NCBI GenBank assembly: GCA_001799895.1
Contig: MGUI01000004.1
Location: 20,961 to 84,960 of the forward strand
Direction of reading: 5' to 3'
Source: Elusimicrobia bacterium GWD2_63_28
GTDB lineage: Bacteria; Elusimicrobiota; Elusimicrobia; Elusimicrobiales; UBA9959
Length of the DNA: 64,000 nucleotides
Notes under the pieces: generated by a model
Told to the model about the DNA's origin: nothing
Database searches by the model: none
Seen by the model: the letters and a program-made list of their open reading frames with translations, nothing else
Position numbers and translations under genes: made by a program
Part shown: positions 10,740 to 46,537 of the stretch, piece after piece
How positions within the stretch are numbered: the stretch's first letter is position 1
Layout of the letters: each line of letters starts with the position of its first letter

Positions 10740-10774
10740 AGGATACCGCCCCATCGCGACAGCGTTATGTCGCG
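10740..10774 (-). promoter_or_regulatory. Island operator/promoter copy 1: CGCGACA-N6-TGTCGCG + 9 nt + TATCCT
   Basis: Perfect 7+7 inverted repeat at 10755..10774. On the minus strand it is followed after 9 nt by TATCCT (10745..10740). Upstream of the 10706 -> <1 operon. Confidence 0.6.
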
Positions 10775-10827
10775 TTGCGAAAGCACACATGCAATTTAGC
10801 TGCGCCGAAGATCGTCGCAGAAATCCA

Positions 10828-13143
10828 TTAATTTTCGGGAGACTGGCTAAAAGGCGCCAGATTTATCCTATACTTCTCCACCTTATCGTCGTCAAACGGC
10901 GGAGCGGCATCAGGATCCATTTCTTCATCATTCTCAAGGTCCAACCATTCACCTGCGCCAAGCAGGTAGCGGAACATCCTATGGCGGGCCTGTACGCGCT
11001 GGAAGATCTTACGCTCGTATGTGCCTGGAAAAGGACAGAAATATATCTCAATACCGCAGTCCTCTTTCCCAGCTTTGCCAACTCCCCCCTCCAAATATTG
11101 CGCGTAACTATTAATCCGGTCTATGCGCCCATGCCGTTGCTCGATAACAGCAGGGCTCCAATGCAAATCATAATGCAATAGTTTCCGGCAGTATTTGTGC
11201 AGGTCTATAGCTTCGGAACCCTTTTCACCTGATACCAGTATTAGTGGGTAGGAAGGCAGGTTGAATTTAAGCATGTTAACTTCGTCAAACTCTGCGGCTA
11301 TAGGCAGATGTGATTTAGCTTTAATGTCGCCAAAGGAGGACTCGTTCTGCACAAAGTCGCGAAGTATTTCTTTATTCCATGGTTCACTTAACCATTTAGC
11401 TAAGTGGTGCTTTGCATGTCTTAAATCCATGCGTCGATTCCTGTACATTTCGGCAGAACCACGGGAGTAGGCGAACAGTTTGTAGATTATATCGCGGTAT
11501 TCTTTATTGTCTATGCACATCCGGCCAATAGAATGAATTGCCGTTTTGTAGAAGTGTTGTTTATTCTTTGATATGTACGCTTGGCAACGCTTCGATATCT
11601 TTATTAGTTCACGCGCCTCATCACTGGTGTTTATCCATTTAATAAGCTTCGTTATTGTTTCTTGACGGGTGCAGAACACAACAACTTTTTCATGCTCACG
11701 CACCTGGGATAAAATCCACTTAAACACCACCTTAAATTTGGGAATCTCCCCTCCATTATTCTTTTGCTGTATTAGGCGCTGGTATTTAAGCAGGGCTGGA
11801 TTTTTTCTCATTGCGCCTTTTGCCAAAGGCGACACCTTGAACGACTTGTTTATCGCAGCCATCGATGAACACAAAGATTGTCTTCGGCTGGCCTGATGCT
11901 CCCTGCCGCCCTTGCTTATGGCAATATCAAGCATTTTCTCTAAGGCCAGCATGGGAAAGGGTTTCTTTCCCAAAGCTTCCATCTGTCTCGCATATTCCCG
12001 TGCCATAGCAGGATCTGTATATATCTCCCGCATACTCCTGCCCTGATTATGATTTTCGGCCTTGGTAGAACGCACAATAAACTTCCTGAGCAGCCCCTGT
12101 AAGTCTCGTATCTCCGAAAAGTTTTCATTGTTATTTTGAAGTGAATCTCTGTATGCGTCCAACATCGCAAATAGAGAGGCCATTTCCTTATTAAATTCAC
12201 CCGGGTGCATCGATTTAGTAAAACCCTCAAGAAGGATTTTTAATTCGCCAATAGCCAGGGAAAATGGGGTTGCCGTGACATAAAGCATTTTCTCCCATTT
12301 TTCAGCAAGAAGATGATTTGTAACCCGGCTGCTGCCTTTGGCCCGGGTTTTATGCGCCTCATCTATAATGACTAGGTCGTAAAAAGCTTTAGTTTTACCT
12401 TTTTTAATAAACTTGCTCAGTTCAAGTTGACGCAGCACTTCTCGAATGCGGATCTCCGCTCCTGAAACCCATATTTTTCCATCTTTATAAAAATTCTCAG
12501 GGCCGATTATCTTTTCAGCTTCCTGGTAGGATAAGTCTTTTATCTCGCAATGTAGGGTGGCGCTAATTTTGCGTCCAGGGAAAACGGCATTGAACAAATA
12601 CTTTTTTTCATGCTCCTTAAGCCGTAGCCCGTACCTGTGGTAGATATATCCCAAAGCTTGCCTGAGTAAAAATATTCTTGGGGCATCGTCCTGTGAATTT
12701 CGTTTTACACTACTAAATGACGCTATAGTAATCCCCTTGTTTTCGGTTAAGTCACCCGGGGTGTATGCTTCTGACATCCAGCGATTCTTTACCAATATCT
12801 TTTTTACACCTGAATCCACTATCTTGTAATCCAATAACCGGTGCCATCTCTCCTGCCATGCCTTTGCCATAGGCCGGCTACTTGCCAGTATTAACACATT
12901 CGCTTTGGGTTTATGTAGTAAAAGGGCAGCCATCACGGACAAAGCCTCAAAGGTTTTGCCCATACCAACCTCATCGGCAAGTATTACTCCGGGGGCGTTG
13001 CGTTTGTATAAACGCAACAAAAGAGCCCTTGCGGTAAGGCGCTGGCGGTTGGCCTCCCTCCTTGGCACACCAGAGTCATCCTTATGCAGGGAAAGCCAAT
13101 TAAGGGGATCCTTGCTAATTTTATTGCAGAGCTTGATGTTCAT
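10828..13143 (-). CDS. SNF2-family (SF2) helicase/translocase
   Basis: Motif I LADEVGMGKTFEA, motif II LVIIDEAHKTR, VTATPFS, motif VI HWSPAVIEQRHGRIDRI. Confidence 0.9.
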   Translation of the reverse strand: MNIKLCNKISKDPLNWLSLHKDDSGVPRREANRQRLTARALLLRLYKRNAPGVILADEVGMGKTFEALSVMAALLLHKPKANVLILASSRPMAKAWQERWHRLLDYKIVDSGVKKILVKNRWMSEAYTPGDLTENKGITIASFSSVKRNSQDDAPRIFLLRQALGYIYHRYGLRLKEHEKKYLFNAVFPGRKISATLHCEIKDLSYQEAEKIIGPENFYKDGKIWVSGAEIRIREVLRQLELSKFIKKGKTKAFYDLVIIDEAHKTRAKGSSRVTNHLLAEKWEKMLYVTATPFSLAIGELKILLEGFTKSMHPGEFNKEMASLFAMLDAYRDSLQNNNENFSEIRDLQGLLRKFIVRSTKAENHNQGRSMREIYTDPAMAREYARQMEALGKKPFPMLALEKMLDIAISKGGREHQASRRQSLCSSMAAINKSFKVSPLAKGAMRKNPALLKYQRLIQQKNNGGEIPKFKVVFKWILSQVREHEKVVVFCTRQETITKLIKWINTSDEARELIKISKRCQAYISKNKQHFYKTAIHSIGRMCIDNKEYRDIIYKLFAYSRGSAEMYRNRRMDLRHAKHHLAKWLSEPWNKEILRDFVQNESSFGDIKAKSHLPIAAEFDEVNMLKFNLPSYPLILVSGEKGSEAIDLHKYCRKLLHYDLHWSPAVIEQRHGRIDRINSYAQYLEGGVGKAGKEDCGIEIYFCPFPGTYERKIFQRVQARHRMFRYLLGAGEWLDLENDEEMDPDAAPPFDDDKVEKYRINLAPFSQSPEN

Positions 13144-13158
13144 GATGCTTATAGCCCG

Positions 13159-14976
13159 CTATACCAGCCGAGTTAATTCCCACGGCCCTCGCTTTTTAAA
13201 ATGCATTGCAAGCTTACGGCGAAGACGCCTTGTCAGAGCTAGATATGTTTTGTCTTTGACTCTGCCATTAAGCGACTGCAGGGAATTGAGGATTTCAAAG
13301 CGCGCCCAATGTCGCCAATGTTTCTCCATTCCGCTTTTAGCTTTTGAAGGAGAATGTATATAAAACGTCTTCGAGAACAACGCCAGGACATTCCGGCAGT
13401 CCAGTTCCGTCCAGGGAGCATCATCGGCAATGCGGGATTCAAGGTAGCGCAATTTGGAAGCCAGATTTCGCACTTTGCCGGCCCAGTGGAAGTGGTTTTT
13501 ATCCATATCCCCACTCCCGCCTCCGGGAACTCGTTTGCCGGGGGCACCACCTGTGCCGGGTAGCTCTTGCTCCCCATAAATAGAGCCCAACCTGGCCAAC
13601 CATTGCTCCGGATCAATTTCGCCTTCATCAGGAGTAATCGGCACACTGTCATCTTCAGGTATATCTATTGCGACCAGTTGCTGCCTGTTCCCCTTTTTTA
13701 AAGTTATATCCAGAAAACAGTCCTGCTTAATACGAAATTTACGCAGACTGGCAGGTGTTAGCTCTGCATTCTCGTATCTGATTCTGCAATTACCAAATCC
13801 GTACTTCTTCTTCCATGTAATTTGCAGGCCCCTGGCTGTAAGCCGGGCAGACTCTATGGCAGAAAGAGTCCCGGACATTTCATCATCTTTACGCTGCTGG
13901 GAAGTCAGCATTTCCTTAATATCGGCAAAAGAACGCCAACGTGGGCCATCCAATGGGGCCAAAATGCCTGGTAAATCTACATGCTGTTCTTTAACTATGA
14001 CAGCCGCTTCCACGTTATACTTCCCGCGGCCACTCATTGCCTTTGATGTGCAATTCGGCGAACCGGCTAGCAGCAATGTGGTTATTTCGCCACGGCTCAA
14101 ACCTTTAATCGCAACTAGTTTGGCATGCAGTTGACCACCACTAAGTGGCACGCCGTGGATATTGAATTGTATTGATCTTATCTTGCAGAATTTTTCCAGA
14201 TCTTCCACAAAAGAACGAGGTGCATAAAGCTCTGCAATGGCGTCATTATAGGGGATGTATAGGTGTAGCTTATCTAAATGCCGCGTAGCTGGGTGTGCTA
14301 AGAGCTCACGAAGGAAGGAATGACTTTCACTGTACGAGTCGCTGCCGTTTTGGTTCAAATCTTCAGCGTCTTCCTGTATATCGTTGAAATACTTATCATA
14401 AAACGGCGAGACTACATGTATCTCATCCGCCAGCATGTGGTTAAGTTTTTCAAAAAGCCGGTCGTCTATTGGTCGCTGGAAACTGGTGACAACGGGAGAG
14501 GATTCTGGAGTTGCGGAGAGGAAATGCTGCGGGGCTTTGATTTCTTTTAAAAGCGGCATTAATGCGAATGGGATGCCCTCGCTACTGATAACTGAAAAGA
14601 ATTCCCTGTTGTGCCGCCAACCGCTAGCGGTTAGATTACCTGAGCCTAATATCGTAAGGAACGTTTTGCGGAACGCGACTATGTAAACTTTGGGGTGAAA
14701 GAGCCGGGCTGGAGTCTCCCATTGTTTAAGCGCATAGCCCTTGTTATAGCTATGCCCAGTATAAACTCTTTTATCGCAGACGACCAAGGTGCGGAACCGA
14801 GCCCCTACCAAACCTATTTCAGTGGGGTCTTGGAAAAGAGGGATTACTTCTTTTTCGAAGAAATGGCAGTCGAAGGTATAAGTAAGAAATACCGCAGCCA
14901 GCGGGTTGCCGTGTATAGTTATGGCTTCGCTGATAACATCTTCAATGCTCTGCTCCCCTACAAAGTTGATCACCAT
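13159..14976 (-). CDS. Phospholipase-D-family (two HKD motifs) nuclease with ~200-aa C-terminal extension
   Basis: HPKVYIV...GSGNLTASG and HAKLVAI...GSPNCTSKA. The start overlaps the stop of 14970..16121 by 7 nt. Confidence 0.8.
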   Translation of the reverse strand: MVINFVGEQSIEDVISEAITIHGNPLAAVFLTYTFDCHFFEKEVIPLFQDPTEIGLVGARFRTLVVCDKRVYTGHSYNKGYALKQWETPARLFHPKVYIVAFRKTFLTILGSGNLTASGWRHNREFFSVISSEGIPFALMPLLKEIKAPQHFLSATPESSPVVTSFQRPIDDRLFEKLNHMLADEIHVVSPFYDKYFNDIQEDAEDLNQNGSDSYSESHSFLRELLAHPATRHLDKLHLYIPYNDAIAELYAPRSFVEDLEKFCKIRSIQFNIHGVPLSGGQLHAKLVAIKGLSRGEITTLLLAGSPNCTSKAMSGRGKYNVEAAVIVKEQHVDLPGILAPLDGPRWRSFADIKEMLTSQQRKDDEMSGTLSAIESARLTARGLQITWKKKYGFGNCRIRYENAELTPASLRKFRIKQDCFLDITLKKGNRQQLVAIDIPEDDSVPITPDEGEIDPEQWLARLGSIYGEQELPGTGGAPGKRVPGGGSGDMDKNHFHWAGKVRNLASKLRYLESRIADDAPWTELDCRNVLALFSKTFYIHSPSKAKSGMEKHWRHWARFEILNSLQSLNGRVKDKTYLALTRRLRRKLAMHFKKRGPWELTRLV

Positions 14977-16121
14977 TTCGGATACCTCCGGTTAATAGAT
15001 TCCCGGAGAGAACACAAGGCATCCCATCTAAACAGGTAATCTTTCGCGGTATGGGGCTTGCCATTATATTTTAGTGCGAGATTCGTGGGCTTTGGCTTCC
15101 CCTTATGCATGGTTACAAGAATGCCGTCTGGATTGCCGCGATCCCTCTGTACCTGGTTATGCAGCTCCACTAGGGCCTGTATATGCTCAGTCCCTTTAGA
15201 GAACAGCATTCTTTTCATTTTATTGGTGTAGTTTCCTAGATCGAGAAGCTGTATCCCCTTTTTAAGACACAGACTCTTTGTCGCTGCCTTTAGGTCCCTT
15301 AGTTCAATAGAATGTGACTCGTTTTTTACCAAAGCATCAAAGAGGTTGTTTGCTGCTGCAAACCATTCTGCGAAAAGAGGCGCAAATGCGGCATACTCCC
15401 GTACTTCCGCGCTTTTTGAGGTCAGCGCTATTTTACGCCACGGCGGCGCCGTTCTGTATTTCCTGGCATACTGACTGTACATTTCCTTCATTACTGGAAA
15501 GTCTTTGTTCTCAAATACTTGGTCTTTCAACCATTTCCTGTTGCCGACAATAAGATATTCTCTAAGCTTGTTGAATCTGGCACATGGATTTTTATGTATA
15601 GATGGAGACCAGTGCCATGAGATGCTCTTGAAGCGATGCAGCACATGAGGCGAGAGTTCTAGTGGGTCTTTGCTTACCAACCCGGCCCTTCTAGCTGGCT
15701 GAGAATGCGCGCCATAAAGCCCCTGAGCTGCTTGGTTTTTGATCAGCCGCTCCGTATGCAGATTGAGGCTTTCCCAGGTTATTTCCCTGTTTTGTATGCC
15801 TTCAATAATTGTTTTGGACTTCTGAACCCCTCTAAATCCGCCATTGTGCCCTTCATTTACCCAGTTAAGTTTTAGTGCGTTTTCAAAGGCCAGGAAATTA
15901 TCCTGCACTTCTTTATCAGTCGGGAATCCTTTTAATGATGCAGTTTCTCGGGCCCATTTAATTCCGTATAGAAAATACAAATAATGCTCCACGTCCGGGG
16001 TTCCGCCGGTTAATAGGGGCAGCAACTTTGCAGCAATTGCCTCATGAACCGCATCGGTTCCGATAAGGTCAGTAAACATGTCCTCTTTGGGTAATTTTGT
16101 CCAGAAGGCGCTTATATGCAT
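14970..16121 (-). CDS. Hypothetical protein (first gene of the unknown-PLD-SNF2 operon)
   Basis: 383-aa ORF, no family recognised; translationally coupled to the PLD gene; preceded by a 181-nt intergenic region. Confidence 0.55.
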   Translation of the reverse strand: MHISAFWTKLPKEDMFTDLIGTDAVHEAIAAKLLPLLTGGTPDVEHYLYFLYGIKWARETASLKGFPTDKEVQDNFLAFENALKLNWVNEGHNGGFRGVQKSKTIIEGIQNREITWESLNLHTERLIKNQAAQGLYGAHSQPARRAGLVSKDPLELSPHVLHRFKSISWHWSPSIHKNPCARFNKLREYLIVGNRKWLKDQVFENKDFPVMKEMYSQYARKYRTAPPWRKIALTSKSAEVREYAAFAPLFAEWFAAANNLFDALVKNESHSIELRDLKAATKSLCLKKGIQLLDLGNYTNKMKRMLFSKGTEHIQALVELHNQVQRDRGNPDGILVTMHKGKPKPTNLALKYNGKPHTAKDYLFRWDALCSLRESINRRYPKW

Positions 16122-16302: not shown

Positions 16303-17166
16303 CTATCTCGCCATAACAGCTGCATCTATTAACTTCGCAAGTTCCACGCCATCCGCAGGGCGTTGCGCTTGATTGTGGGATAATGCGTTTACTAGTACGG
16401 GGAATAGATTTTTGGGGCCAGTCCAATCGGTTTCGGTAACATTCCCGCTTGGGTGTCGTCCAGTTGCTACAAACCAAAATACTGAGCCGAGTTGGAAGAC
16501 ATCGGATCGCTTTGAAATTGCGTCTGTATTGCCAACGGCCTTATTTATTGCTTCCGGAGACATCCAATATCTGGGGCCAATCACTTCATCTGCACTTGTA
16601 AGGTCATCTCCGGAACCAAACACTTCACACAACCCAAAATCACTTAGCAACCATGTTTCACCTTTAACTAATATGTTTTCAGGCTTAATGTCTCGATGTA
16701 CGGCTTTTTGATGTAAAACACCAAGAGCCTCCGCCAAGCCTTTAAACTGTGCGATATACTCCTCTGGCAGTGGCATCTGCCCATCGGTTTTAATCACATC
16801 TCGAAGATTCTTGTCTGCAATTGGCATGATTAAAAATGGGATTATGACATCTTTTTTCTCGGGCATCTGTATGCCTCTGATTTCGCCATGGTCTACATAG
16901 CTCATAAGCTGAGAATGCGTGAGCTGCTGATGAAGCTCTATCTCTTTCGTAAATCTCTGTTTTCGCTTTTCTGACAGTATTAGTTGAAATTTAACAGCAT
17001 AAGTATCACCATCAATTCGGTCGATGCACTCATATACAACAGCGTTTCCTCCTGCTCCCAATCTGTCACCTATTTCGTATTCACGCCCTTTGCCTGAAAA
17101 AAAGCTTGGGGCTATACGCCAAGAGTTCCTTGGTCGAGATGAGAAATAGAGATCAATGTGTGTCAT
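16303..17166 (-). CDS. Hanks-type Ser/Thr protein kinase (kinase domain only)
   Basis: Gly loop LGAGGNAVVY, AVKF lysine, HRDIKPENIL, DFGL, SPE. The start overlaps the DUF262 stop (ATGA at 17163..17166). Confidence 0.85.
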   Translation of the reverse strand: MTHIDLYFSSRPRNSWRIAPSFFSGKGREYEIGDRLGAGGNAVVYECIDRIDGDTYAVKFQLILSEKRKQRFTKEIELHQQLTHSQLMSYVDHGEIRGIQMPEKKDVIIPFLIMPIADKNLRDVIKTDGQMPLPEEYIAQFKGLAEALGVLHQKAVHRDIKPENILVKGETWLLSDFGLCEVFGSGDDLTSADEVIGPRYWMSPEAINKAVGNTDAISKRSDVFQLGSVFWFVATGRHPSGNVTETDWTGPKNLFPVLVNALSHNQAQRPADGVELAKLIDAAVMAR

Positions 17167-18509
17167 TCAATCATGCCATGTTCATTGTCTGGGATGGCAT
17201 ATGTGGCATCCCAGACATGATATTCATTTCTGGCTTTTTCTTTGCACGCATTGTGAATAAAGACAGCGTTCATTATCTGGAATGTGGTGGATGTTTTCTT
17301 CCAAGTTAGAAATACTTTCTCCGTGGAATAATCTTCTCCCTCCTCTCCGCACACTGGGCACGTGAATGACGCTGTGGGGCATACGCCAGGAGTGTATAAA
17401 TCCCATAATAGAGAATGAAAGACTTTAACTCCCTCAATGTTTGGCGGTCGTGAAAAATATGTGCCCTCAATCACTAGTTTCAAGAAGTCCTTGCGCCAGC
17501 GCCGGCTTGCTATGGAATTGGCTTGCGAAATACATTGGATGGCATATTTGCGCAGTATCCCGATCTCTGACTCTGGTTCTGTGTTGTAGTCAATAAGCTG
17601 AAGATCCTCTTTTAGGTATTCCGCAGAGCGTCCCTCTAGCGTCCCTCCTGTAGAATTGCACTCATCAATCGCGGCGAAAAGACTATAAAAATCCGCCTTC
17701 TGCCTAAATCTCATTTGAGAAAATGTCTTTATATCGAGTGTTTCCGCCGGCTGTTGATCGCTAATGCTTTTCATGTCTTTCAGAACGCGCTCGAAGCGGG
17801 CCTTGATTGCTGCTTTTTCGGATGTATCCCAACGCGCATAGTTTAAGTAAAAATCATCTAACGTGTCCCTCTTCTCCTGAGGCCCTGATATTAGCAGCGC
17901 AAGAAGTTCCGATACAAACTCGACATCCCCCATGCGCTTGCTATTTGCGATTGTAAAGACTTTTGCTTCTTCGAGAAATTGGCTCTGTGCTAATTCCTCT
18001 GAAAGCGACAGGAATTCGCCAGGGTAGTCGGCTCTTCGTAATTCCTGTCTATTTAATGCGACCGTATATTTGTTAACTCGCTGATAGATGTTTCGTACCA
18101 CATCGTCAGGGGCATTACGGATTTCGTTTGTATCTATTTTATAAGACAAAAAGTCGTCTTGTATCGAAGATGGTAGTTCCGAAAAGATGCGACCAATATA
18201 TTCCCCATCGTAGGGCGGAGCAAGTCGATAATCCCCTTTTAAAAATGACAAAATCGCCTTTATGCGCTGCTGGCCATCTATAACCACACGATATGTATCA
18301 GAATCTCTTACAATTGAGTGGAAAAATATCTTGGGCATTGGGATATTTTTCATGATAGTGTCCATAAGAAAAACACGTGCTGCAGGGGACCAAACCTCCT
18401 TTCTTTGAAAGTCAGGACGTATTTCAAGTCTTTGAGCAGTGCTCCAATCTCTAATATCTGAAATCGGATGCGAACTAGAAATCCATTTCCATGTCATTTT
18501 GTGCTCCAA
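17163..18509 (-). CDS. DUF262 (ParB/Srx-like, GmrSD/SspE N-terminal-type) domain protein with Cys-rich C-terminus
   Basis: DFQRKEVWS and IDGQQR motifs. The C-terminus has CPVCGEEG ... IHNAC. Shorter than a canonical SspE, and I saw no obvious DUF1524/HNH domain. Confidence 0.75.
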   Translation of the reverse strand: MEHKMTWKWISSSHPISDIRDWSTAQRLEIRPDFQRKEVWSPAARVFLMDTIMKNIPMPKIFFHSIVRDSDTYRVVIDGQQRIKAILSFLKGDYRLAPPYDGEYIGRIFSELPSSIQDDFLSYKIDTNEIRNAPDDVVRNIYQRVNKYTVALNRQELRRADYPGEFLSLSEELAQSQFLEEAKVFTIANSKRMGDVEFVSELLALLISGPQEKRDTLDDFYLNYARWDTSEKAAIKARFERVLKDMKSISDQQPAETLDIKTFSQMRFRQKADFYSLFAAIDECNSTGGTLEGRSAEYLKEDLQLIDYNTEPESEIGILRKYAIQCISQANSIASRRWRKDFLKLVIEGTYFSRPPNIEGVKVFHSLLWDLYTPGVCPTASFTCPVCGEEGEDYSTEKVFLTWKKTSTTFQIMNAVFIHNACKEKARNEYHVWDATYAIPDNEHGMIE

Positions 18510-18527
18510 GCAAGAAATATACTCTTG

Positions 18528-19484
18528 TTACCCTTTCCAATATATAACCTGTGAATGCCGAGGGGTATCCCAGGATATCTCTTTTGGGAAAAAATAGACC
18601 AACCAATCGTAAAAGACTCTTACGTTTTCCTTAACTTGCCAGCGATATGGCAGAGGGACATCCTCGCATTTCCGATGAATCCAGTCTGCAACCGCACCGA
18701 ATCGGAGACTGCTTTGTGCTTTTAAATAGGAAACAAAATCTACGACAAAGGGCGACTCTTGGAATGCACGCCTTAGCTGTTCAGTGAACTCTGAAGGAGA
18801 AAGGCCGGGCTTAATCTGAAACAGGACAAGGTCATGAATTGCCCGTCTAACCTCATCTGTTGTCTGGGGTGACGCGATTTGCAGGTAATAATTTCTCAGT
18901 TTATCTGGGGTATCGCTTGCCGGAAGAGACGACAATGAATATGCTTTCCTTTCAGGTGCGGGGATGTTCTTAAAGTATTCTTTTTCTACTTGAGGATTTT
19001 CTTTTTTGTATCTTTCAAGCTCAGAATTTAATGCAGAATAATATGTTTCATCAACCAGAGAGCTTTCATCGATAATTCTATAGATATGCCCCCAATCTGT
19101 GACTGATAATCTGGCGAAACTGCCAGCCTCAATATTTGGAGTCTTTCCAGTCCCCATCCCAGATTGTGTTAAGTTGCCACTAGTGTTCAATGCATGGTTT
19201 GATTCAAACACGTAAAGCTTAAGATGGATACTCTTGTTAACGAACAGCTGAATCCCCTTGTTGTGTAAATATGGATAAACACTTAAATCGGAAACCCCCG
19301 CAACAAGATCCGCAGGAGTCCACCGCACAACAATTTTAACGTCAAGGGGTGCCGGTATGCGCTCAACAAGGTTTTTCAAAGCGTCGAGTTTTATGAAAGG
19401 CGATATTACAAGGCGCAGCGAATCGCCGGCTTCAATTCGCTGCACTATTGCTTGCTCAATTGGTGGCCAGATCAAATCACCCAT
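18528..19484 (-). CDS. Single-HKD PLD-family nuclease (NgoFVII/BfiI-like N-terminal domain) with unknown C-terminal domain
   Basis: HLKLYVFESNHALNTSGNLTQSG motif in the N-terminal ~130 aa. Confidence 0.6.
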   Translation of the reverse strand: MGDLIWPPIEQAIVQRIEAGDSLRLVISPFIKLDALKNLVERIPAPLDVKIVVRWTPADLVAGVSDLSVYPYLHNKGIQLFVNKSIHLKLYVFESNHALNTSGNLTQSGMGTGKTPNIEAGSFARLSVTDWGHIYRIIDESSLVDETYYSALNSELERYKKENPQVEKEYFKNIPAPERKAYSLSSLPASDTPDKLRNYYLQIASPQTTDEVRRAIHDLVLFQIKPGLSPSEFTEQLRRAFQESPFVVDFVSYLKAQSSLRFGAVADWIHRKCEDVPLPYRWQVKENVRVFYDWLVYFFPKEISWDTPRHSQVIYWKG

Positions 19485-19522
19485 ATAGAACGCAGCCCAG
19501 CGTATGCATTAGAATTAAGATG

Positions 19523-37025: not shown

Positions 37026-37045
37026 TTTAGTGTCCTCCTGTGTTT

Positions 37046-37498: not shown

Positions 37499-37575
37499 AA
37501 CTACCTCCTAATAAAAGAGGCGGGCGCCTCCCTTTCGAAAGCACCCGCCATCTGGTTAGTTTCTGGTACTGCTAC

Positions 37576-37902: not shown

Positions 37903-38097
37903 ACACTCTCCTTTCAGCAGAATTAGTAACAAGCGCCGACTAATGCGGTTCTTCTATTTCAAGGGTAAAGCCTTGGAACAACCGGAATGGCCGTCGCCAA
38001 ACTCACCTGAGGCGCAGGCATGAAAAGAGGATTAATCTTTCTAGCCTGCGCATTCAGTGATTTTTAGAGGTATCTGGGGTTTATATACTTTTCGGTA

Positions 38098-38132
38098 CGC
38101 GACATGACCCTGTCGCGGTCCTGATGTAAGCT
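38098..38132 (+). promoter_or_regulatory. Island operator/promoter copy 2: CGCGACA-tgaccc-TGTCGCG + 9 nt + TAAGCT
   Basis: Perfect palindrome at 38098..38117; upstream of the 38175 operon that contains the WYL regulator gene. Confidence 0.6.
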
Positions 38133-38681: not shown

Positions 38682-39223
38682 TCAACAACGTAACCCCAAT
38701 ATCTACCGACCGCAGGTATTCCCTGGCATGGTCTTCTGGCGGAGTAATTGGAATTAGAGAATTGGCTACATGTTCTCCCCTTGTTACGCTCAGAGAGGAT
38801 CATGGCGCGATCCTACGGGCGGGATTTTCCACCGACATGCGACAACTGGTTTCCGCCAATGAGGACGGCACCTATTCTATATGGTTCATTAAAAACGACA
38901 TCCCCCCGAAAGGTCGCACCCCTCAAAACAATATCGTCGACTATATCTGCGATGTAGATCTGGTCCCATACCTGAACATAAACCCAAAATCCAAAGCGCA
39001 CAGATATCATTTCATGCTGAAAGATGTGAGTTACGCCATGTATGACTGGTATGATTGGCAAGACTGCCAATGCCCATACTGCGCATGGTACAGCCCCTGC
39101 CGGGAGCCTGGTTGGAAAAGTTCAGACCCGAGCGCTACAAGCTGCTCACGCGGAAGCAAAGGGTGCAACTACAAGTCTACGAGACTTGCTGAAAAGAAGG
39201 GCAAAAGATACCATATAAGATAG
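38654..39223 (+). CDS. Hypothetical protein with Cys-rich C-terminus
   Basis: 189-aa ORF with an ATG start. One WD-like stretch (VSANEDGTYSIWFI). C-terminus CQCPYCAWYSPC...SCSRGSKGC. Confidence 0.45.
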   Translation: MQVIDLEHIINNVTPISTDRRYSLAWSSGGVIGIRELATCSPLVTLREDHGAILRAGFSTDMRQLVSANEDGTYSIWFIKNDIPPKGRTPQNNIVDYICDVDLVPYLNINPKSKAHRYHFMLKDVSYAMYDWYDWQDCQCPYCAWYSPCREPGWKSSDPSATSCSRGSKGCNYKSTRLAEKKGKRYHIR

Positions 39224-39238
39224 GACTACGGGGAGATT

Positions 39239-40246
39239 ATGGCTAAGAAAAAAACTGCCACAAAAAAGGACGATTTTAAGGTCATAAGAATAGGAGCGAA
39301 CCCTGACAAGCGCAGTGATGGGGATCGCCAACATTATCGCATAGGCAAGATCCTAAACAGGCTGGAAGAAGGTCCGGTGCAACTCCGCGCTTTAGCTGCG
39401 GAGTACGGTGTGGTCAAGCGGTCAATAGAACGCGACATAGAACGCATTGAACTTTATGGGTATAACATTGTTACCCCTAAAAAAGGCTGGCGACAATTCG
39501 CCCCAGGAGTAAGCCTAAAAAAAGGGCGCCTAGACGTTCAGCAGCAATCCGCATTAATCATCCTTAACGAGATATCCAAGAACCTTGGCAGTTCCATGCA
39601 GCAATCCTTCGGGACTCTCTTCAAGCACCTCATGGAGGCCGATCCGGCCGATTCTGTTATTGTGCCGGTAATGCCCAAGATCATCAACACAAAAGAGATT
39701 CCCTACATAGACCAGATAGAGGCGGCGATACAGGACCACCGCAAGCTCAATATCCAGTATAACTACGAGGCAAAGGGAGAAATTGTCCCCCGCACAATCT
39801 GCCCGGTCAAGATACTCATCTCCGAAGGCAATGCCTATGTTCTGACGATATCGGAACGGTGGCACGGCAGCCCTATCACATACCGGATAGACCGAATAAA
39901 GACCTTGGAGGACACCCCGGATAAATTCACTCCCCCGAATAACCTGAGCGAGTTGCTGGAAAAGGCGCGCAGCATCTGGGGCATAATGCCGGAGAATGAG
40001 CGCACAACCCTTATACGCCTGAAAGTAACCGACTGGGCCAGGGAATATTTCAGATACCAGGAAATAGTCGGCGGGCAGAAAATAATACCCCAGGAAGACG
40101 GTTCCTTCATCTACGAGGCCAAGATTGGCCGACTGATGGAAATAGTCCCCCATATTCTGCGGTGGATGCCCTATGTGAAGGTTCTGGAGCCTAAAGAGCT
40201 GAAAGAGACCGTCAAATACCGCATAAACGAGTACCTGAAGAAATAG
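39239..40246 (+). CDS. WYL-domain transcriptional regulator (BrxR/CapW-like architecture)
   Basis: N-terminal HTH LRALAAEYGVVKRSIERDIERI, central WYL-like domain ICPVKILISEGNAYVLTISERWHGSPITYRIDRI, and a C-terminal extension. Confidence 0.75.
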   Translation: MAKKKTATKKDDFKVIRIGANPDKRSDGDRQHYRIGKILNRLEEGPVQLRALAAEYGVVKRSIERDIERIELYGYNIVTPKKGWRQFAPGVSLKKGRLDVQQQSALIILNEISKNLGSSMQQSFGTLFKHLMEADPADSVIVPVMPKIINTKEIPYIDQIEAAIQDHRKLNIQYNYEAKGEIVPRTICPVKILISEGNAYVLTISERWHGSPITYRIDRIKTLEDTPDKFTPPNNLSELLEKARSIWGIMPENERTTLIRLKVTDWAREYFRYQEIVGGQKIIPQEDGSFIYEAKIGRLMEIVPHILRWMPYVKVLEPKELKETVKYRINEYLKK

Positions 40247-40279
40247 CCTTCCACTAGACAGTCCCCAAAATTAGCGCAC

Positions 40280-40314
40280 CGCGACAAAACCCTGTCGCGG
40301 TGCTTGCTTATACT
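40280..40314 (+). promoter_or_regulatory. Island operator/promoter copy 3: CGCGACA-aaaccc-TGTCGCG + 9 nt + TATACT
   Basis: Perfect palindrome at 40280..40299; TATACT at 40309..40314; AAGGAGG RBS and ATG 40336 follow. Confidence 0.65.
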
Positions 40315-40335: not shown

Positions 40336-41562
40336 ATGAGCAACAGCGAATTTTTTGACGGTCAGATAAAGCAGTTCCATAAGGAATTCCCCCAGAGCGA
40401 GGGCTGGCAAATCTTCAAAAACAACAAAGACTTTTTATCTTTGGTGCCAGAATTGATAGACACTAAACCAAAGATATTAAAGTCCGGCGAAATTTCCCGA
40501 GACATCTCCCACGAATCTCACTATTCGGAAACCAAGGAGGTGTATGAGTTTTCCATGCGGAAAACCCGTTGGCTCGGGACATATCGGCTTCTCTGGGATA
40601 ATAAGCCCATAATAATACGATCCCTCTATTACGAGACCCACCGACAGATACCCTACTTCCTCGTAGCCGTCAAAGATTCTGCCACTCTCAGCAACTTCTA
40701 TGAAGCGATATTAAAGTTTGAGCTGGAAGTCGGAAAGAAACGGGGGCATTCCGTTGTGCAGACCGTGGACTCGGAAGATATTTCCCTCTCCGGGATGTCC
40801 TGGGACAACCTGATACTCCCTACCGGCATGGTAGAAGAGATCAGAACCGGGGTAGAAACATTTTTTAAGGCTGAGGACGTATACAAACGCTTTAGCATCC
40901 CCTACAAGCGTGGTTTTGTTTTTTCCGGCCCGCCAGGATGCGGAAAGACCATGACTGCCAAAACAATCTTAGGGACAATGCACCATCCCTCCTTCCTAAT
41001 CACCAGCAGCGCTGGGAGAGATTACATGGAGTATAAGATCAAGTGGGCATTTGAAGCAGCATCCAGACACGCACCGGCAATACTTCTGATCGAAGAACTT
41101 GAGAAGTTTTCCGAGGCGTCATCGATATCGACCGTGCTAAACCTTATGGATGGGCTCAGTTCAATGAAGGGGATCCTCGCAATAGCCACCACGAACTACC
41201 CCGAGAAGATTGACCCCGCCCTACTGCTGCGGCCCAGTCGCTTCGACCGGGTCTGGAATTTTGCACTGCCGGACTATGAGTGCCGGCTGCGAATGCTTCA
41301 GAAGAAAGCGAACGGACATGTTAACGCCAACATCCTGGAGAAAGTGGCGAAATTCTCCTCCGGATTCTCAATGGCCTATGTGCAGGAAATATTCGCCTCG
41401 GCGATATCCATGGCCCTGCGTGAAGGCCGGGAAGTTTCGGACGTCGACCTGCTGAATAGCGTAGAAATGCTCAAAAAGCAGATCAAGAGCGCCCCGAAGA
41501 GCGGTGCTGGACTTGGTGAAGGTAGCCAGAAAATGGGATTCATCCCGGCGGATGTGAGTTGA
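40336..41562 (+). CDS. Classical AAA+ ATPase (single AAA module, unknown ~190-aa N-domain)
   Basis: Walker A SGPPGCGKTMTA, Walker B ILLIEELE, ATTNYPEKIDPALLLRPSRFDR (SRH/Arg finger). The track start 40300 (GTG) lies inside the operator; ATG 40336 has AAGGAGG. Confidence 0.85.
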   Translation: MSNSEFFDGQIKQFHKEFPQSEGWQIFKNNKDFLSLVPELIDTKPKILKSGEISRDISHESHYSETKEVYEFSMRKTRWLGTYRLLWDNKPIIIRSLYYETHRQIPYFLVAVKDSATLSNFYEAILKFELEVGKKRGHSVVQTVDSEDISLSGMSWDNLILPTGMVEEIRTGVETFFKAEDVYKRFSIPYKRGFVFSGPPGCGKTMTAKTILGTMHHPSFLITSSAGRDYMEYKIKWAFEAASRHAPAILLIEELEKFSEASSISTVLNLMDGLSSMKGILAIATTNYPEKIDPALLLRPSRFDRVWNFALPDYECRLRMLQKKANGHVNANILEKVAKFSSGFSMAYVQEIFASAISMALREGREVSDVDLLNSVEMLKKQIKSAPKSGAGLGEGSQKMGFIPADVS

Positions 41563-41563
41563 T

Positions 41564-41869
41564 ATGACATTCCTTTTCATCTGCCTCGGGCTTTACCTCT
41601 TGTCACGACTATTCTCCCCAAGGCCGGAGGAGCACCAGCGGGAGATCCTCATCGGAATATTTATCTCTGAGTACCACAAGCGCAGCGGTATCTGGGTGAC
41701 CCGAGAGCAGGCGATAGCCCTTATTCAAATTGCATATGCTACGATAACCAATGAGGAACGGGCGGTTAGCCATGCGGAGCAACAAAGACACGCCCAGACT
41801 TTGGCCAGAGAACTTTGCCAAGCAGCAGAACAGGCAGTTCTGAATAACCAGAATAAAGAAAATTTATGA
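41564..41869 (+). CDS. Small single-pass membrane protein
   Basis: N-terminal TM FLFICLGLYLLSRLF; starts 1 nt after the AAA stop. Confidence 0.5.
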   Translation: MTFLFICLGLYLLSRLFSPRPEEHQREILIGIFISEYHKRSGIWVTREQAIALIQIAYATITNEERAVSHAEQQRHAQTLARELCQAAEQAVLNNQNKENL

Positions 41870-42315
41870 CAAACAAGCATCGCGACACGATAAATGCCAT
41901 AAAGCAATATCTCATTGATACAGGCGAATATGAGTTCCCCAGCGAACGATTCTTTGAGAAGGAGATAAAGCCTACGGGGAGCCGTGGTGCTTGGGGGTAC
42001 ACTCCGGATATCAATGCTGTAAGGAAAGATGGAGCTCGCGTTATCGTAGAGGTCGAATATGGTGTTAGCCTAGGAAAGGTTATTGAAGATATAATCTTGT
42101 CGAATTTAATCACCCCCCCACCCCTGCTGATTATCGTGTCTCCATATTCCGCCTATGTTTCCTCCTGGTATGAATTGCTGAAGAAGGAATATAAGTTAAG
42201 CCTGAAGATGGCGTTTATCGAATGCAAAGATTCTACTTCTGAAGCGTATTCCGCCGTTGTGTCAAAATTTAAAGACATTTTAAACAATCATCTGCCACAC
42301 CAGACCGCGACATAG
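41866..42315 (+). CDS. Hypothetical protein, possible PD-(D/E)xK-fold
   Basis: ATGA overlap with the previous gene. GYTPDINAV...VIVEVEYG resembles a restriction-endonuclease core (weak call). Confidence 0.45.
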   Translation: MTNKHRDTINAIKQYLIDTGEYEFPSERFFEKEIKPTGSRGAWGYTPDINAVRKDGARVIVEVEYGVSLGKVIEDIILSNLITPPPLLIIVSPYSAYVSSWYELLKKEYKLSLKMAFIECKDSTSEAYSAVVSKFKDILNNHLPHQTAT

Positions 42316-42340
42316 CCCTGTCGCGCTGTCCTGCCATAAT
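42306..42340 (+). promoter_or_regulatory. Island operator/promoter copy 4: CGCGACA-tagccc-TGTCGCG + 9 nt + CATAAT
   Basis: Perfect palindrome at 42306..42325, overlapping the last codons of 41866..42315; ATG 42359 is 18 nt after the hexamer. Confidence 0.6.
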
Positions 42341-43732: not shown

Positions 43733-44572
43733 TTACCTAAACCATTCCTCAAGATCTTCAGTTACAATCCGGGCAATCTCGGCCGGAGAAAGATTGGGGT
43801 GAGCCCCATTAAGATGTGTCATATAACTTCTCTGAAGTTGTGCGCGAGTGCGAGAAGAGAAAGATTGATCCTTGAACCTACAGGTGAAACGAACACCGGA
43901 AGATTCAGGGCGGGCGACTCTCTCGTGACGCGCATGGCCGAACAGATGATTTAGATATTTGGCAAGATACTGCCCATGAGTCCCACATTTATCCTGAACA
44001 TATTCACCGAACTCTTTCATGGATACCCAGAAAACATGCGGAGACTGCTTAGCTGGGACATCAGAAAACCCTGCCGGTTTACGTCCAAGTGGAGTTAAAT
44101 AGACTATATCTACCTGGTCAATGATAGCCTGAACCCCGGATATCTTCTGCAGCAGTGAATCGAAAGAACTTTTGTTATCGGAAGCGGCGCGTATCTGGCG
44201 AAGCGCAGTTAGATTTGCGACCATACCCGCTTCCTGTGCCACACGATATCTGTTGAACTGCTTTTGATCATGGTCCGTCTTTAACGTCTCCTCGGATGTT
44301 TTGAATTCCACAAGAACCCATCTAGAGTCATTTCCATCCTCGACAAAGCAGAGATAATCGACAGCTGTGAATTGATTTGATTCCGGCTTTTTTAATGGGA
44401 ATTCCGCTGCGATTAAACGCACTTCTTTCGATTTATAAACTTTCTCACTTAAGTATCCAGGCAAGAAATGCGCTACAAAAACATCCAAGCGGCGCTCTAT
44501 TGAAAACCCCGGCAGGTTTTCCATCTCTTCAATATAAGAGAATAGTTTCTGAAAACAATCGTGCGTAGACAT
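43733..44572 (-). CDS. PD-(D/E)xK-like nuclease-fold protein
   Basis: AVDYLCFVEDG...WVLVEFKT core. Start moved to ATG 44572 (GAGGG RBS, 13 nt after the upstream stop) from track start 44641. Confidence 0.5.
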   Translation of the reverse strand: MSTHDCFQKLFSYIEEMENLPGFSIERRLDVFVAHFLPGYLSEKVYKSKEVRLIAAEFPLKKPESNQFTAVDYLCFVEDGNDSRWVLVEFKTSEETLKTDHDQKQFNRYRVAQEAGMVANLTALRQIRAASDNKSSFDSLLQKISGVQAIIDQVDIVYLTPLGRKPAGFSDVPAKQSPHVFWVSMKEFGEYVQDKCGTHGQYLAKYLNHLFGHARHERVARPESSGVRFTCRFKDQSFSSRTRAQLQRSYMTHLNGAHPNLSPAEIARIVTEDLEEWFR

Positions 44573-44585
44573 TTGCCCTCGCCTA

Positions 44586-45389
44586 TTACCTAGCAATTTT
44601 AGCTCTATTGCCCCTTGGCTTAGAGTACACCTGATCCCCATTAAGCTTAAGTGTTTGGGTTAAGCAGTTATCTCCAGGGAATTCTCTAGAAACCTGTCCC
44701 CATGTCAAAATTCCAAATCTAGCAAAGACACGACTTAACTGGGTTGAATCATTCGAATATCGACTTTTCCAGTAATCAGACATCTTCTGGTAAACAGGCC
44801 TCCCGTCCCCAGGGATAAGACCAATCACATACCATTTAGCAGAATACTCCCACAGCATGTTTATTAGATACTTGCTTACAGGCTTACTGTCCGGTATTTT
44901 TCGAAGTTGGCCATCTATGACCTCCCCTATGCGTAGAGATCTCCTCATGGTCAAAAAATTATTATGGCTTTTCCAATTTTCGATTCTTCCTCCTAGCTCA
45001 AGTTCACGGGTGACCTGTTTTTTTAGGCAGGATGTCCCATCGCCAAGAAATTCCCGGAGGAGCGTCTTTTCTTTTTTAAATCCTTTTGCTTTTGCTTCGA
45101 TAAACAGCGCCACCCGCTGTTCTTTAGAGTCATCGCGTGATTGCGCTTTCAATAGGAGAATCGCATCCGGATTTCCACATTCACTTAAAGAAAATTCAAC
45201 AAGCACATGATCCAAGGAATTCACCACAAGGTTCTGACCAATTAGTCCAGAAAACCCCTTTCCGTTTAGCAGTTTCGTAAGTATCTTTGCCCCATTCTGA
45301 TTAATCAATTCATTTACAAACGCGTTTACCGCACCCCTTTCTGAATATTGCCACAGCCTAACCTTTGCCAATTGCGAACGTGTCATCAT
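44586..45389 (-). CDS. PD-(D/E)xK-like nuclease-fold protein
   Basis: NPDAILLL...ALFIEAKAKG core; no family recognised. Confidence 0.45.
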   Translation of the reverse strand: MMTRSQLAKVRLWQYSERGAVNAFVNELINQNGAKILTKLLNGKGFSGLIGQNLVVNSLDHVLVEFSLSECGNPDAILLLKAQSRDDSKEQRVALFIEAKAKGFKKEKTLLREFLGDGTSCLKKQVTRELELGGRIENWKSHNNFLTMRRSLRIGEVIDGQLRKIPDSKPVSKYLINMLWEYSAKWYVIGLIPGDGRPVYQKMSDYWKSRYSNDSTQLSRVFARFGILTWGQVSREFPGDNCLTQTLKLNGDQVYSKPRGNRAKIAR

Positions 45390-45470
45390 ATACTTCTCTC
45401 CATTTCGGAATCATCCCAGAATAACCATCATATATACCTTTCAGAATGTAAGGCAATATCTAAATTTACA

Positions 45471-46433
45471 CTATACGTCCTTTTCATCCATTACCTGCAC
45501 TATGCTGTAGTGGTTATCCTCGAACTCAAGGTGCTTGACCATCTCTGCATAAACAGGGAACTTCTCCCTCTTCCCCAACTCGGTAATCTTCCCTGCCCGA
45601 TAGAATGTTGCCAGAGAATCCCAAGCCGCACGGCGGACATCTGCCACAGGATCCTTAACCAATTCCCGAAGAAAGGCTACGGCATCCTCCGAAAAGCATT
45701 TTCCAATAGCCATTGCCGCCGCCTCGCGGGTATTGGCATCCGGAGATTTAAGTTTCGGCAAAACCAGCCATGAGAGATCCTCCCCCATCCTCATAAGCGC
45801 CGTGGCGAATTCAAGCTGAAACTTGTCGTCCTCCTCTTCCAGCATCGCGCATTTTATGGATTGGCGAATCCAGCTATGTGGCTCCATGCCTGCAAGAGCA
45901 CTGGCCGCTGCGGTGCGAAGTTCCCCCGGCCTGTCTGCTTCGAGTAAGCGCAAAAGATGCGGCTTACACTCGGGGTCCTTAATCTCCTCTATGCCATACA
46001 GCCCATGCAAAGCCACGATCTGATCCTCACTGTCCGCCGCCTTAACCAGCACCATCAGGCCCGCATATCCCCCGAGATGCGCTATGGCCATGCTGGACTC
46101 TATCCCAACCTCTACTATCACATCGGAAAGAGCCTCCTCCAGCTCGTCCATTTCCCGTTCCGTAGCGCATGTCTTCATAGCAATTGCTGCAGCTAGCCGC
46201 ACGTACGGGCCCCCAAAGCGGAGGAGATAGGCCAGCCGGCTTGCCGCTATCCTTAGCCCTAGCATCCCAACCGCCTGTATAGCGCGAAGCAAGACCTTCT
46301 GTTTCTTACGGAAGAGGAGTTCCAGCAGCAGGAAGCGTTTCTCCCTGTTGGCAGGCTGGCCTAAGGCATAGACCGCGGTTCGCCACTTCTTAAGATCCCT
46401 TTCAGATGCTATTGTTTTAATGATGTCGTTCAT
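45471..46433 (-). CDS. HEAT-repeat protein
   Basis: Repeated D...R..AA.ALG units (GELRTAAASALAG, DANTREAAAMAIGK, DPVADVRRAAWDSLA). ATG 46433 has a GGAGGA RBS; track start 46448 is a TTG. Confidence 0.65.
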   Translation of the reverse strand: MNDIIKTIASERDLKKWRTAVYALGQPANREKRFLLLELLFRKKQKVLLRAIQAVGMLGLRIAASRLAYLLRFGGPYVRLAAAIAMKTCATEREMDELEEALSDVIVEVGIESSMAIAHLGGYAGLMVLVKAADSEDQIVALHGLYGIEEIKDPECKPHLLRLLEADRPGELRTAAASALAGMEPHSWIRQSIKCAMLEEEDDKFQLEFATALMRMGEDLSWLVLPKLKSPDANTREAAAMAIGKCFSEDAVAFLRELVKDPVADVRRAAWDSLATFYRAGKITELGKREKFPVYAEMVKHLEFEDNHYSIVQVMDEKDV

Positions 46434-46451
46434 ATATCCTCCGTCCAATAA

Positions 46452-46486
46452 AGTCTACTCCCCCAACGCGACAGGGCAATGTCGCG
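46452..46486 (-). promoter_or_regulatory. Island operator/promoter copy 5 (minus orientation): CGCGACA-ttgccc-TGTCGCG + 9 nt + TAGACT
   Basis: Perfect palindrome at 46467..46486. Read on the minus strand, its spacer ends in CCC like copies 2-4. TAGACT at 46457..46452; HEAT-gene ATG 46433. Confidence 0.6.
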
Positions 46487-46502
46487 GTCTACCCATCCCC
46501 AA

Positions 46503-46537
46503 CGCGACATGACGTTGTCGCGGTGATGTTGTATGCT
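46503..46537 (+). promoter_or_regulatory. Island operator/promoter copy 6: CGCGACA-tgacgt-TGTCGCG + 9 nt + TATGCT
   Basis: Perfect palindrome at 46503..46522; TATGCT at 46532..46537; ATG 46559. Copies 5 and 6 are each preceded by CCCCAA. Confidence 0.65.

Follow-up and report, generated by a model that had tools for sequence, protein, structure and literature searches.

DriD of Caulobacter crescentus is a homodimeric transcription activator with a helix-turn-helix of the winged type (wHTH), a WYL and a WCX domain (PMC9186387, PMC10853764, PMC13004042), and its operator is ATACGAC-N7-GTCGTAT (PMC13004042). DdaA of Moraxellaceae, also a WYL activator, controls DNA-damage and anti-phage genes (PMC12392091, PMC13010146) through the operator CGWCA-N5-TGWCG (PMC12392091). 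PafBC of Actinobacteria is a WYL activator that works by sigma adaptation (PMC8635444, PMC11804915) at promoters of the form tGTCgg(N10)tA(N3)T, which have no -35 element (PMC8635444). BrxR and CapW are defence-associated WYL repressors (PMC9122601, PMC9122589, PMC11662680, PMC13622015), and RptR represses a phage defence island (PMC12255303). Here we describe a palindrome, CGCGACA-N6-TGTCGCG, that stands before six promoters of an integrative defence island in Elusimicrobia bacterium GWD2_63_28, together with the WYL regulator encoded in the same island. The sequence inspected was a stretch of 64 kb (contig MGUI01000004.1, positions 20,961–84,960; the window in what follows) and a further 7.4 kb beyond its left end. 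We propose, with a probability of roughly 0.6, that the six palindromes are the operators of the island's own WYL regulator, which would activate some 22 genes in the manner of DriD, DdaA and PafBC; binding, activation and ligand are parts of this reading that we infer.

A search for the exact palindrome gave six matches in the window, with starts at 10755, 38098, 40280, 42306, 46467 and 46503. The operators, with their weight-matrix scores, and the -10 hexamers of promoters P1 to P6 are:

10755–10774, minus strand: operator 1, CGCGACATAACGCTGTCGCG read toward transcription, 39.4 bits (leave-locus-out matrix), promoter P1
10740–10745, minus strand: -10 hexamer of P1, TATCCT
38098–38117, plus strand: operator 2, 38.3 bits, promoter P2
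38127–38132, plus strand: -10 hexamer of P2, TAAGCT
40280–40299, plus strand: operator 3, 41.2 bits, promoter P3, 34 nucleotides (nt) after the regulator stop codon
40309–40314, plus strand: -10 hexamer of P3, TATACT
42306–42325, plus strand: operator 4, 34.6 bits, promoter P4, overlapping the stop codon of the preceding gene
42335–42340, plus strand: -10 hexamer of P4, extended, TGc-CATAAT
46467–46486, minus strand: operator 5, 29.4 bits, promoter P5
46452–46457, minus strand: -10 hexamer of P5, TAGACT
46503–46522, plus strand: operator 6, 46.9 bits, promoter P6
46532–46537, plus strand: -10 hexamer of P6, TATGCT

Toward the neighbouring gene, exactly 9 nt separate each palindrome from its -10-like hexamer, and the window promoters continue with a Shine-Dalgarno sequence and an ATG 18–49 nt past the hexamer. 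The 26-bp operator duplex is CACCGCGACA-N6-TGTCGCGGTG. P5 and P6 are divergent, and their operators are separated by 16 bp.

No match to the exact palindrome occurred in 100 dinucleotide-preserving shuffles of the window. Allowing two mismatches added one match, at 20422, which is intragenic, has no -10 hexamer and was rejected as an operator. A weight matrix made from 29 sites, all from outside the window and outside L003 (a locus whose regulator is 89% identical to the one studied here), was scanned over both strands and recovered exactly the six window sites at 29–47 bits, with a shuffle maximum of 12.4 bits; beyond the six, nothing in the window scored above 12 bits. Neither the 13.7 kb of host flank at 50.3–64 kb nor the 7.4 kb left of the window holds a copy. 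Exact search and reading of the sequence thus bear out what the initial annotation had reported of the six copies, the 9-nt gap, the distance to the ATG and the lack of copies in the GC-rich host part, and the mismatch search that it proposed added, within the window, only the spurious match at 20422.

The palindrome of operator 3 extends to 40276–40303, with arms of 11–12 bp (GCACCGCGACA...TGTCGCGGTGC), starts 30 nt after the regulator stop codon and was flagged as terminator-like. Arms extended in the same way are also seen in L003 and L008 at the sites that follow the WYL gene. Between the P2 and P3 units, operator 3 may have a second role as terminator or insulator.

Taking the -10 hexamer as -12 to -7 puts the operator at about -41 to -22, with its centre near -31.5, over the place of the -35 element. 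None of the six window promoters passed a sigma-70 consensus scan, and five of them lack both a usable -35 and an extended -10. Across 41 aligned sites from 13 loci the best match to TTGACA averages 2.5 of 6 positions, and GACA and TGTC are invariant in 39–41 of the 41. The direction-specific CCC noticed by the initial annotation in the window spacers generalises to this alignment: spacer position 4 is C toward transcription in 32/41 sites, and the mirror position is G in 4/41. Read toward the gene, the N6 spacer tends to nnACgc, a faint xxGACx remnant at the place where sigma region 4 would lie.

The palindrome and the regulator travel together. In DNA around WYL homologues of 38–89% identity, taken from independent metagenome contigs and contigs of metagenome-assembled genomes (MAGs), the palindrome was present in 12 of 13 distinct loci, with one to eight sites per locus, although the loci were chosen by WYL homology and several are related to one another, so that the sites are not all independent. 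L003 has six sites, at promoters equivalent to those of the window. Eight sites each were found in L011 and L024, five in L022, three each in L017, L013 and L021, and one each in L004, L008, L014, L023 and L025. The thirteenth locus, L007, encodes a WYL protein of 56% identity and has no site; the two small open reading frames (ORFs) behind the site of its relative L008 are missing there too. Loci with only distant WYL proteins (27–32% identity) contain no site either. Nearly all loci are from Elusimicrobia, and the single one binned as Bacteroidetes may be explained by MAG binning.

Spacing is equally uniform in these loci, where a search for N5 and N7 spacer variants found none and only N6 occurs. 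Forty sites have at most two mismatches, and TANNNT follows at exactly +9 nt in 36 of them, CATAAT in two and TATAAC in one, the last being a spurious intragenic match. About 0.6 sites of this quality would be expected by chance in ~190 kb, far below the number observed. Every good site lies 9 nt from a -10 before a gene, and the initial annotation's view of the motif as something other than a repetitive extragenic palindromic (REP)-like repeat holds for the sequence inspected. Among the motif-bearing loci fetched, which were picked by WYL homology, the WYL gene is the only gene common to all. This co-occurrence makes the island's WYL protein (39239–40246), already put forward as a binder by the initial annotation, the best candidate for the protein that would read the operator.

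What lies behind the sites differs from locus to locus and includes YhcG nucleases, RhuM/Fic, BrnT, a Gp49/HigB-like protein, KilA-N, ADP-ribosylglycohydrolase and Abi_2, as well as ClpX-like AAA proteins, a DnaB_C-like protein and homologues of the MBL and DUF2779 proteins of the window. The single site of L014, like that of L025, is placed between the regulator gene and one that diverges from it, and points toward this second gene. Eight operators occur within 18 kb of L024 (1779–17712), and seven of them share a near-identical block, ...TCTGC-TATGCT-ATTTGTGGG..., before unrelated genes, namely two YhcG nucleases, RhuM/Fic, BrnT, a Gp49-like protein and KilA-N. From its sequence this block looks like a promoter cassette copied before successive cargo genes. 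Three chromosomal-looking Elusimicrobia loci, L008 (2181–2375), L013 (5099–5248) and L023 (1863–2099), have a site followed by a small ORF of 49–78 amino acids (aa), and the N-termini of these ORFs have the pattern K-[KR]-[FL]-S-[LF]-F-x-[GD]-x-I-[LI]...R-x-Y in common; a DNA polymerase III alpha gene comes after the ORF of L013. The small ORF could encode a DNA-damage-induced small protein like DidA or AciT, or be the remnant of a longer gene. Some of the WYL homologues have a core-like chromosomal context beside tuf, pfk and mltA.

The regulator is a single chain of 335 aa in which Pfam recognises HTH_11 (residues 37–85), WYL (156–224, 6e-11) and WCX (258–331, 1e-10), the three domains of the wHTH-WYL-WCX architecture. 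A profile of the family searched against the PDB matched DriD (3.5e-13), PafBC (2e-9), PafC (7e-5) and BrxR (0.009 and 1.4), and gave no CapW match. The AlphaFold2 (AF2) model matches full-length DriD, PafC, CapW and BrxR, with Foldseek values of ~1e-14 for PafC and DriD and ~1e-8 for CapW and BrxR. By sequence and predicted fold the nearest solved relatives are thus DriD and PafBC, with BrxR and CapW further away. The family comprises 111 clusters at E below 1e-30 in an exhaustive profile search; a homologue search gave a small family, and the only named matches below the clade were Acinetobacter WYL proteins (~23% identity). No other WYL gene is found in the island.

In DriD, R37, E40 and R41 read the CGAC half-site (PMC10853764). 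The recognition helix KRSIER aligns with DriD RRTAER, so that these residues correspond to R61, E64 and R65 of the regulator. The WYL strand that carries the conserved RWHVR in CapW and BrxR (PMC11662680) reads NAYVL here, and G-[FN]-A-Y-[IV]-[LF] in the family alignment. The DriD residues Y168, R178, Y192, W206 and R207, which contact single-stranded DNA (ssDNA; PMC9186387), have the conserved counterparts Y174, R185, Y200, Y215 and R216. An ssDNA-like ligand is plausible on these grounds, because five DriD contact residues have counterparts, although the contact arginines R176 and R204 do not.

We suggest that a homodimer of the wHTH-WYL-WCX regulator would occupy the operator and cover the -35 place. 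Its WYL domain would bind a ligand, by analogy ssDNA arising from DNA damage, phage infection or DNA entry, upon which the wHTH domains would engage the operator and help the housekeeping holoenzyme of RNA polymerase use a promoter that has only a -10. Six units would then be switched on together: Eleos dynamin/TPR, the regulator's own operon, AAA+, the MBL-fold nuclease gene, HEAT-repeat and DUF2779/HAD. The regulator's operon lies behind one of the operators, which points to the autoregulation already suggested by the initial annotation, and under activation this would amount to positive feedback. Taken together, these observations support the annotation's idea of one circuit in which a shared operator links six transcription units.

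Promoter geometry bears on the sign of regulation. TGTCGC-N10-TANNNT has the same register as the PafBC consensus tGTCgg(N10)tA(N3)T. In our own alignment of three DriD promoter oligonucleotides (from PMC13004042) a conserved CAA lies 9 nt after TG[GT]CGCA, and the optimised -35 of these oligonucleotides lies 17 bp upstream of the aligned hexamer, as judged from the sequences in PMC13004042. Sigma region 4 docks in DriD complexes on the DNA face opposite the wHTH, and the xxGACx spacer remnant fits such an arrangement. A linker of exactly 9 nt, kept in about 40 sites down to 38% protein identity, is expected of an activator that contacts RNA polymerase and is not required for steric repression. 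The initial annotation had left open whether a bound dimer would occlude or replace the -35; of the two, replacement by activation of the DriD/PafBC type is favoured from the promoter and protein sequences, and activation is accordingly the sign of regulation to which we lean.

Several points weigh against activation by the island's regulator. Binding, ligand and sign of regulation are all matters that we infer; the HTH alignment to DriD is to a sub-threshold domain of a hidden Markov model search, the AF2 model is of moderate quality (predicted local distance difference test, pLDDT, 72; predicted template modelling score, pTM, 0.43), two ssDNA-contact arginines of DriD are replaced (V183 for R176, I213 for R204), and the -10 position of the DriD oligonucleotides is our own reading of published sequences, not a statement of their authors. 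A position over the -35 is classical for repressors too, and the WYL regulators so far shown beside defence systems, BrxR and CapW, are all repressors (PMC11662680, PMC9122601, PMC13622015). The same protein and operator might thus work in the BrxR/CapW way: the apo dimer would block RNA polymerase at the -35, and the six units would be de-repressed once a ligand, for example ssDNA, makes it let go. It would be conventional for the regulator's operon to be under negative autoregulation, while a pure activator would depend on basal expression, because the regulator gene has no obvious promoter besides the target promoter that drives it; P2 does have the best -35 remnant (ATGACC). Moreover, the -10 is of the extended type (TGn) in 13/41 sites, including P4 and most of those in L024, and such promoters could fire unaided by an activator, and two spacers keep a 4-of-6 match to the -35 (ATGACC and ATGACG). 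We nevertheless regard repression as unlikely. Most window promoters, with neither a usable -35 nor an extended -10, would leave little to repress, and the invariant linker would be unnecessary. In sequence and fold the protein itself lies on the side of DriD and PafBC, with BrxR and CapW more remote, and it has NAYVL in place of RWHVR, and the CapW operator shares no similarity with the palindrome (PMC11662680).

A different reader of the operator can also be imagined, a chromosomal Elusimicrobiota WYL orthologue that serves as a DNA-damage regulator of the host and would be the main one to bind it; the island promoters would then have joined the host regulon, with the island copy redundant or modulatory. 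The operator is unchanged across WYL proteins of 38–100% identity, so that paralogues should recognise each other's sites, and the host flank is indeed from Elusimicrobiota; the core-like context of some homologues and the site ahead of a DNA polymerase III alpha gene would suit such a role. Yet the window and the 7.4 kb beyond it contain no second WYL gene and no host-side site, and in the island as in L003 the regulated block includes a regulator of its own, so that we consider this reading quite improbable. Still less credit can be given to a reading that we rejected, in which the palindromes are terminator or insulator hairpins, in RNA or in DNA, or else REP-like repeats that the island has spread. 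Their 7-bp GC-rich arms can form a hairpin, and 40276–40303, just past the regulator stop codon, does look terminator-like, but it is alone in this. Most sites lie upstream of a paired -10 and lack a T-tract, all stand before genes at the fixed 9 nt, none is in the host flank, and it is the arms that are conserved while the loop varies, in a motif that tracks one protein family across very different loci.

Activation by the island's own regulator would reach the genes behind the six promoters, about 22 of some 47 island genes, located at the two ends of the island (10.7 kb and 38–46.5 kb). Gene calls for the P1 operon are those on the source scaffold, which is 183 kb long and from an environmental metagenome. 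The genes are:

1–10706, minus strand: P1 operon of about 10 genes, running off the left end of the window (Pfam, PADLOC and scaffold gene calls)
P1 gene order: 116 aa, 160 aa, TPR 429 aa, TPR 316 aa, ~305 aa, LeoC-like, LeoB-like, LeoA-like, 223 aa, 770 aa (the gene that leaves the window)
5967–6584, minus strand: LeoC-like (PADLOC LeoC, 4.8e-64)
4336–5970, minus strand: LeoB-like (PADLOC LeoB, 1.5e-144)
2577–4292, minus strand: LeoA-like (PADLOC LeoA, 2.5e-215)
38181–39223, plus strand: first two P2 genes, 166 aa and 189 aa, of no known function, upstream of the regulator gene
39239–40246, plus strand: wHTH-WYL-WCX regulator, 335 aa, last P2 gene (Pfam HTH_11, WYL, WCX)
40336–42315, plus strand: P3 operon, AAA+ ATPase of 408 aa (Pfam AAA, 2.9e-22), then 101 aa and 149 aa
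42359–43714, plus strand: P4 gene, MBL-fold protein with RMMBL domain, putative nuclease, 451 aa (Pfam Lactamase_B_2, RMMBL)
43733–46433, minus strand: P5 operon, HEAT-repeat protein of 320 aa (Pfam HEAT_2, 5.5e-23), then 267 aa and ~280–302 aa of no known function
46559–48704, plus strand: P6 operon, DUF2779 protein of 493 aa (Pfam DUF2779, 8e-43), then HAD hydrolase of 217 aa (Pfam HAD_2, 2.9e-44)

PADLOC places LeoA, LeoB and LeoC adjacent at 2577–6584, and by these matches the P1 operon carries a predicted Eleos (LeoABC) dynamin-like defence system. The 166-aa and 189-aa proteins of P2 have no Pfam or PADLOC family and are conserved in L003 at 43–48% amino-acid identity. The AAA+ operon of P3 has weak PADLOC matches to IetA and TRIP13, and in L003, L004 and L017, too, the WYL gene has an AAA gene after it that stands behind a site. 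Homologues of the MBL protein stand behind a site in L003 and L021. The HEAT protein matches PADLOC HEAT-ARM_XIII (5e-12), and its gene is 73% conserved in L003. For the DUF2779 protein there is a weak Cas4-like PD-(D/E)XK match (PADLOC Cas4), and homologues are found behind sites in L003 and also in L021, there downstream of the MBL gene.

The remainder of the island is free of operators, and the initial annotation's term 'island-wide' was too broad: the SspABCD, kinase, DUF262, PLD and helicase modules have no site in front. No site was found in the 27 kb between P1 and P2, even by the weight-matrix scan. This centre holds an SNF2 helicase and a PLD protein, a PD-T4-6-like kinase, an NsnA-like DUF262 protein, DrmC-, MzaB- and PbeA-like proteins, SspABCD, a HerA-like protein and RadC. 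A complete SspABCD phosphorothioation module, with no WYL operator in front, lies at 23114–29542 (SspD 1e-133, SspC E=0, an SspB-like DUF4007 protein and an SspA-like class-V aminotransferase/cysteine desulfurase). Downstream of it on the same strand, at 16303–22935, are the PbeA-like helicase, the MzaB-like protein, the DrmC-like PLD protein, the NsnA-like DUF262 protein and the PD-T4-6-like Ser/Thr kinase. The block at 29647–37932 is of mobile-element type, has no WYL operators and includes a HerA/DUF87-like ATPase (30120–32207), RadC (37046–37498) and a DUF2958 protein (37576–37932). It also contains three small proteins (32.9–34.1 kb) that the initial annotation called wHTH and considered as binders of the palindrome; they match no Pfam family, and the genes listed for the motif-bearing loci fetched include no homologue of them, which speaks against that role.

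Both the window (10828–16121) and L003 (4408–8796) have a minus-strand cassette of helicase, PLD and a third gene between P1 and P2. The two cassettes are non-homologous (helicase only 29% over 93 aa) in spite of their equivalent position, and a 22-kb insertion in the window relative to L003 was rejected for this reason. Judged by its gene content, the P1–P2 interval resembles a slot for variable cargo, with conserved WYL-regulated modules on either side.

The island has a GC content of ~45–50%, and its right flank one of 60–67%. Its right end (49196–50349) is marked by two features:

49196–50206, minus strand: tyrosine integrase (Pfam Phage_integrase, 4.5e-38)
50273–50349, minus strand: tRNA-Met (ARAGORN)

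The left boundary should lie just outside the window, because GC climbs to 0.55–0.61 about 0.7 kb left of the window start. Directly beyond this end, in higher-GC DNA on the host side, is a GrpE-HSP70-VWA cluster (L029, 18809–21716). As to att sites, a comparison of the tRNA-Met end with the left boundary region gave no direct repeat of at least 12 bp. The flank belongs to Elusimicrobiota, its adenine deaminase being 89–93% identical to Elusimicrobia MAG proteins. By Pfam, the flank at 50.3–64 kb encodes RsgA, a metallophosphoesterase, the adenine deaminase, a CHASE3-PAS hybrid histidine kinase, TauE and an M14 peptidase. This GC-rich DNA gives long overlapping ORFs on both strands. Those at 52595–54295 (plus), 56746–59019 (minus), 60406–61788 (plus) and 59605–60420 (minus) have no Pfam family, and that at 61864–63129 (plus) has no homologue at E <= 1e-20; they are probably spurious.

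BrxR (PMC9122601), RptR (PMC12255303) and DdaA (PMC12392091, from 2025) are published regulators of defence genes, and the initial annotation, which knew of no defence island wired by one shared operator, went too far in its claim of novelty. Searching the literature for the motif strings as text brought up nothing but unrelated primers and sequences. What we have not found described is the N6 operator, this clade of Elusimicrobiota, a regulator with six phased promoters on one integrative island and this set of cargo.

Activation at these promoters would extend the ssDNA-triggered, -35-replacing style of DriD, DdaA and PafBC to Elusimicrobiota, an almost uncultivated phylum, and would be a case of a regulator that moves with its six dependent promoters on an integrative island. 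Its grammar would be defined very precisely by about 45 phased promoters (13 loci): half-site, directional N6 spacer, invariant 9-nt linker and a TAtaCTATT -10. The dimer geometry would tolerate one extra bp between half-sites, while the proximal half-site would keep the PafBC/DriD register to the -10. Scanning these genomes for the motif would also be a cheap way to pick out inducible genes for defence, toxins and repair; those it marks here include Eleos, Abi_2, BrnT, Fic/RhuM, YhcG nucleases and several of no known function. A more far-reaching idea, which we put forward tentatively and hold to be rather doubtful as a whole, is that palindrome, 9 nt and -10 make up a composite element that serves a clade of Elusimicrobiota WYL activators as a portable on-switch, by which a mobile island gates several immune modules. 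Four modules have no better than a weak PADLOC or other known-defence match (AAA+/101 aa/149 aa; MBL nuclease; HEAT/267 aa/~300 aa; DUF2779/HAD) and might then be new inducible anti-phage or DNA-damage effectors. Because the operator is kept across 38–100% regulator identity, island and chromosomal copies might cross-talk and so couple acquired immunity to the host's ssDNA alarm.

Among the known WYL regulators, BrxR and CapW share with the regulator the wHTH-WYL-WCX superfamily, a place beside defence genes on mobile islands and palindromic operators of ~20 bp; their signal is probably ssDNA. They are more distant in sequence and fold, however, have the RWHVR that is absent here, and usually have one operator at one bidirectional promoter, unrelated in sequence, in contrast to the six phased sites of the island.

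PafBC is the second-best PDB relative and has the same promoter grammar, with tGTCgg in place of TGTCGC and likewise no -35. The guanines of GTC are read by two arginines at i and i+4, R46/R50 in PafB and, by prediction, R61/R65 here. The regulator is the product of one gene and has a full two-fold palindrome; the two chains of PafBC, by contrast, form a heterodimer whose target is a single half-site (the -26 element) and which needs RNA polymerase in order to bind DNA.

DdaA is a WYL activator with a CGWCA...TGWCG palindrome, and its regulon mixes DNA-damage genes with restriction-modification, Zorya and CRISPR-Cas. The Acinetobacter WYL proteins noted above (~23% identity) may include DdaA itself. 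The spacer is N5 in DdaA and N6 here, and DdaA is a chromosomal global regulator with scattered targets, whereas the regulon described here is self-contained on an island.

DriD is the best PDB match by sequence and fold and has the same domain order. Its palindromic operator has the same CGACA/TGTCG half-site, overlaps the -35 at a constant distance from the -10 with no recognisable -35, and occurs at several promoters, and the site placement in L014 and L025 resembles that of driD/CCNA_03891. Identity is only ~18–22%, however, and the arms are GC-rich here (CGCGACA) compared with ATACGAC in DriD. The half-sites are also 1 bp further apart, CGAC-N8-GTCG against CGAC-N7-GTCG; the DriD/DdaA spacing corresponds to ACA-N5-TGT, and all our sites have ACA-N6-TGT. 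The targets of DriD are recA, recJ, dnaG, didA and bapE, while those found here are defence-like and uncharacterised modules, which ride with their regulator on an integrase-bearing island in Elusimicrobiota, the regulator being transcribed from one of its own target promoters. From its sequence, the regulator is best regarded as a new clade within the WYL-activator kind, and a variant of it, rather than an orthologue of DriD, DdaA or PafBC, because it shares neither the N7/N5 spacing of DriD and DdaA nor the single-half-site heterodimer of PafBC.

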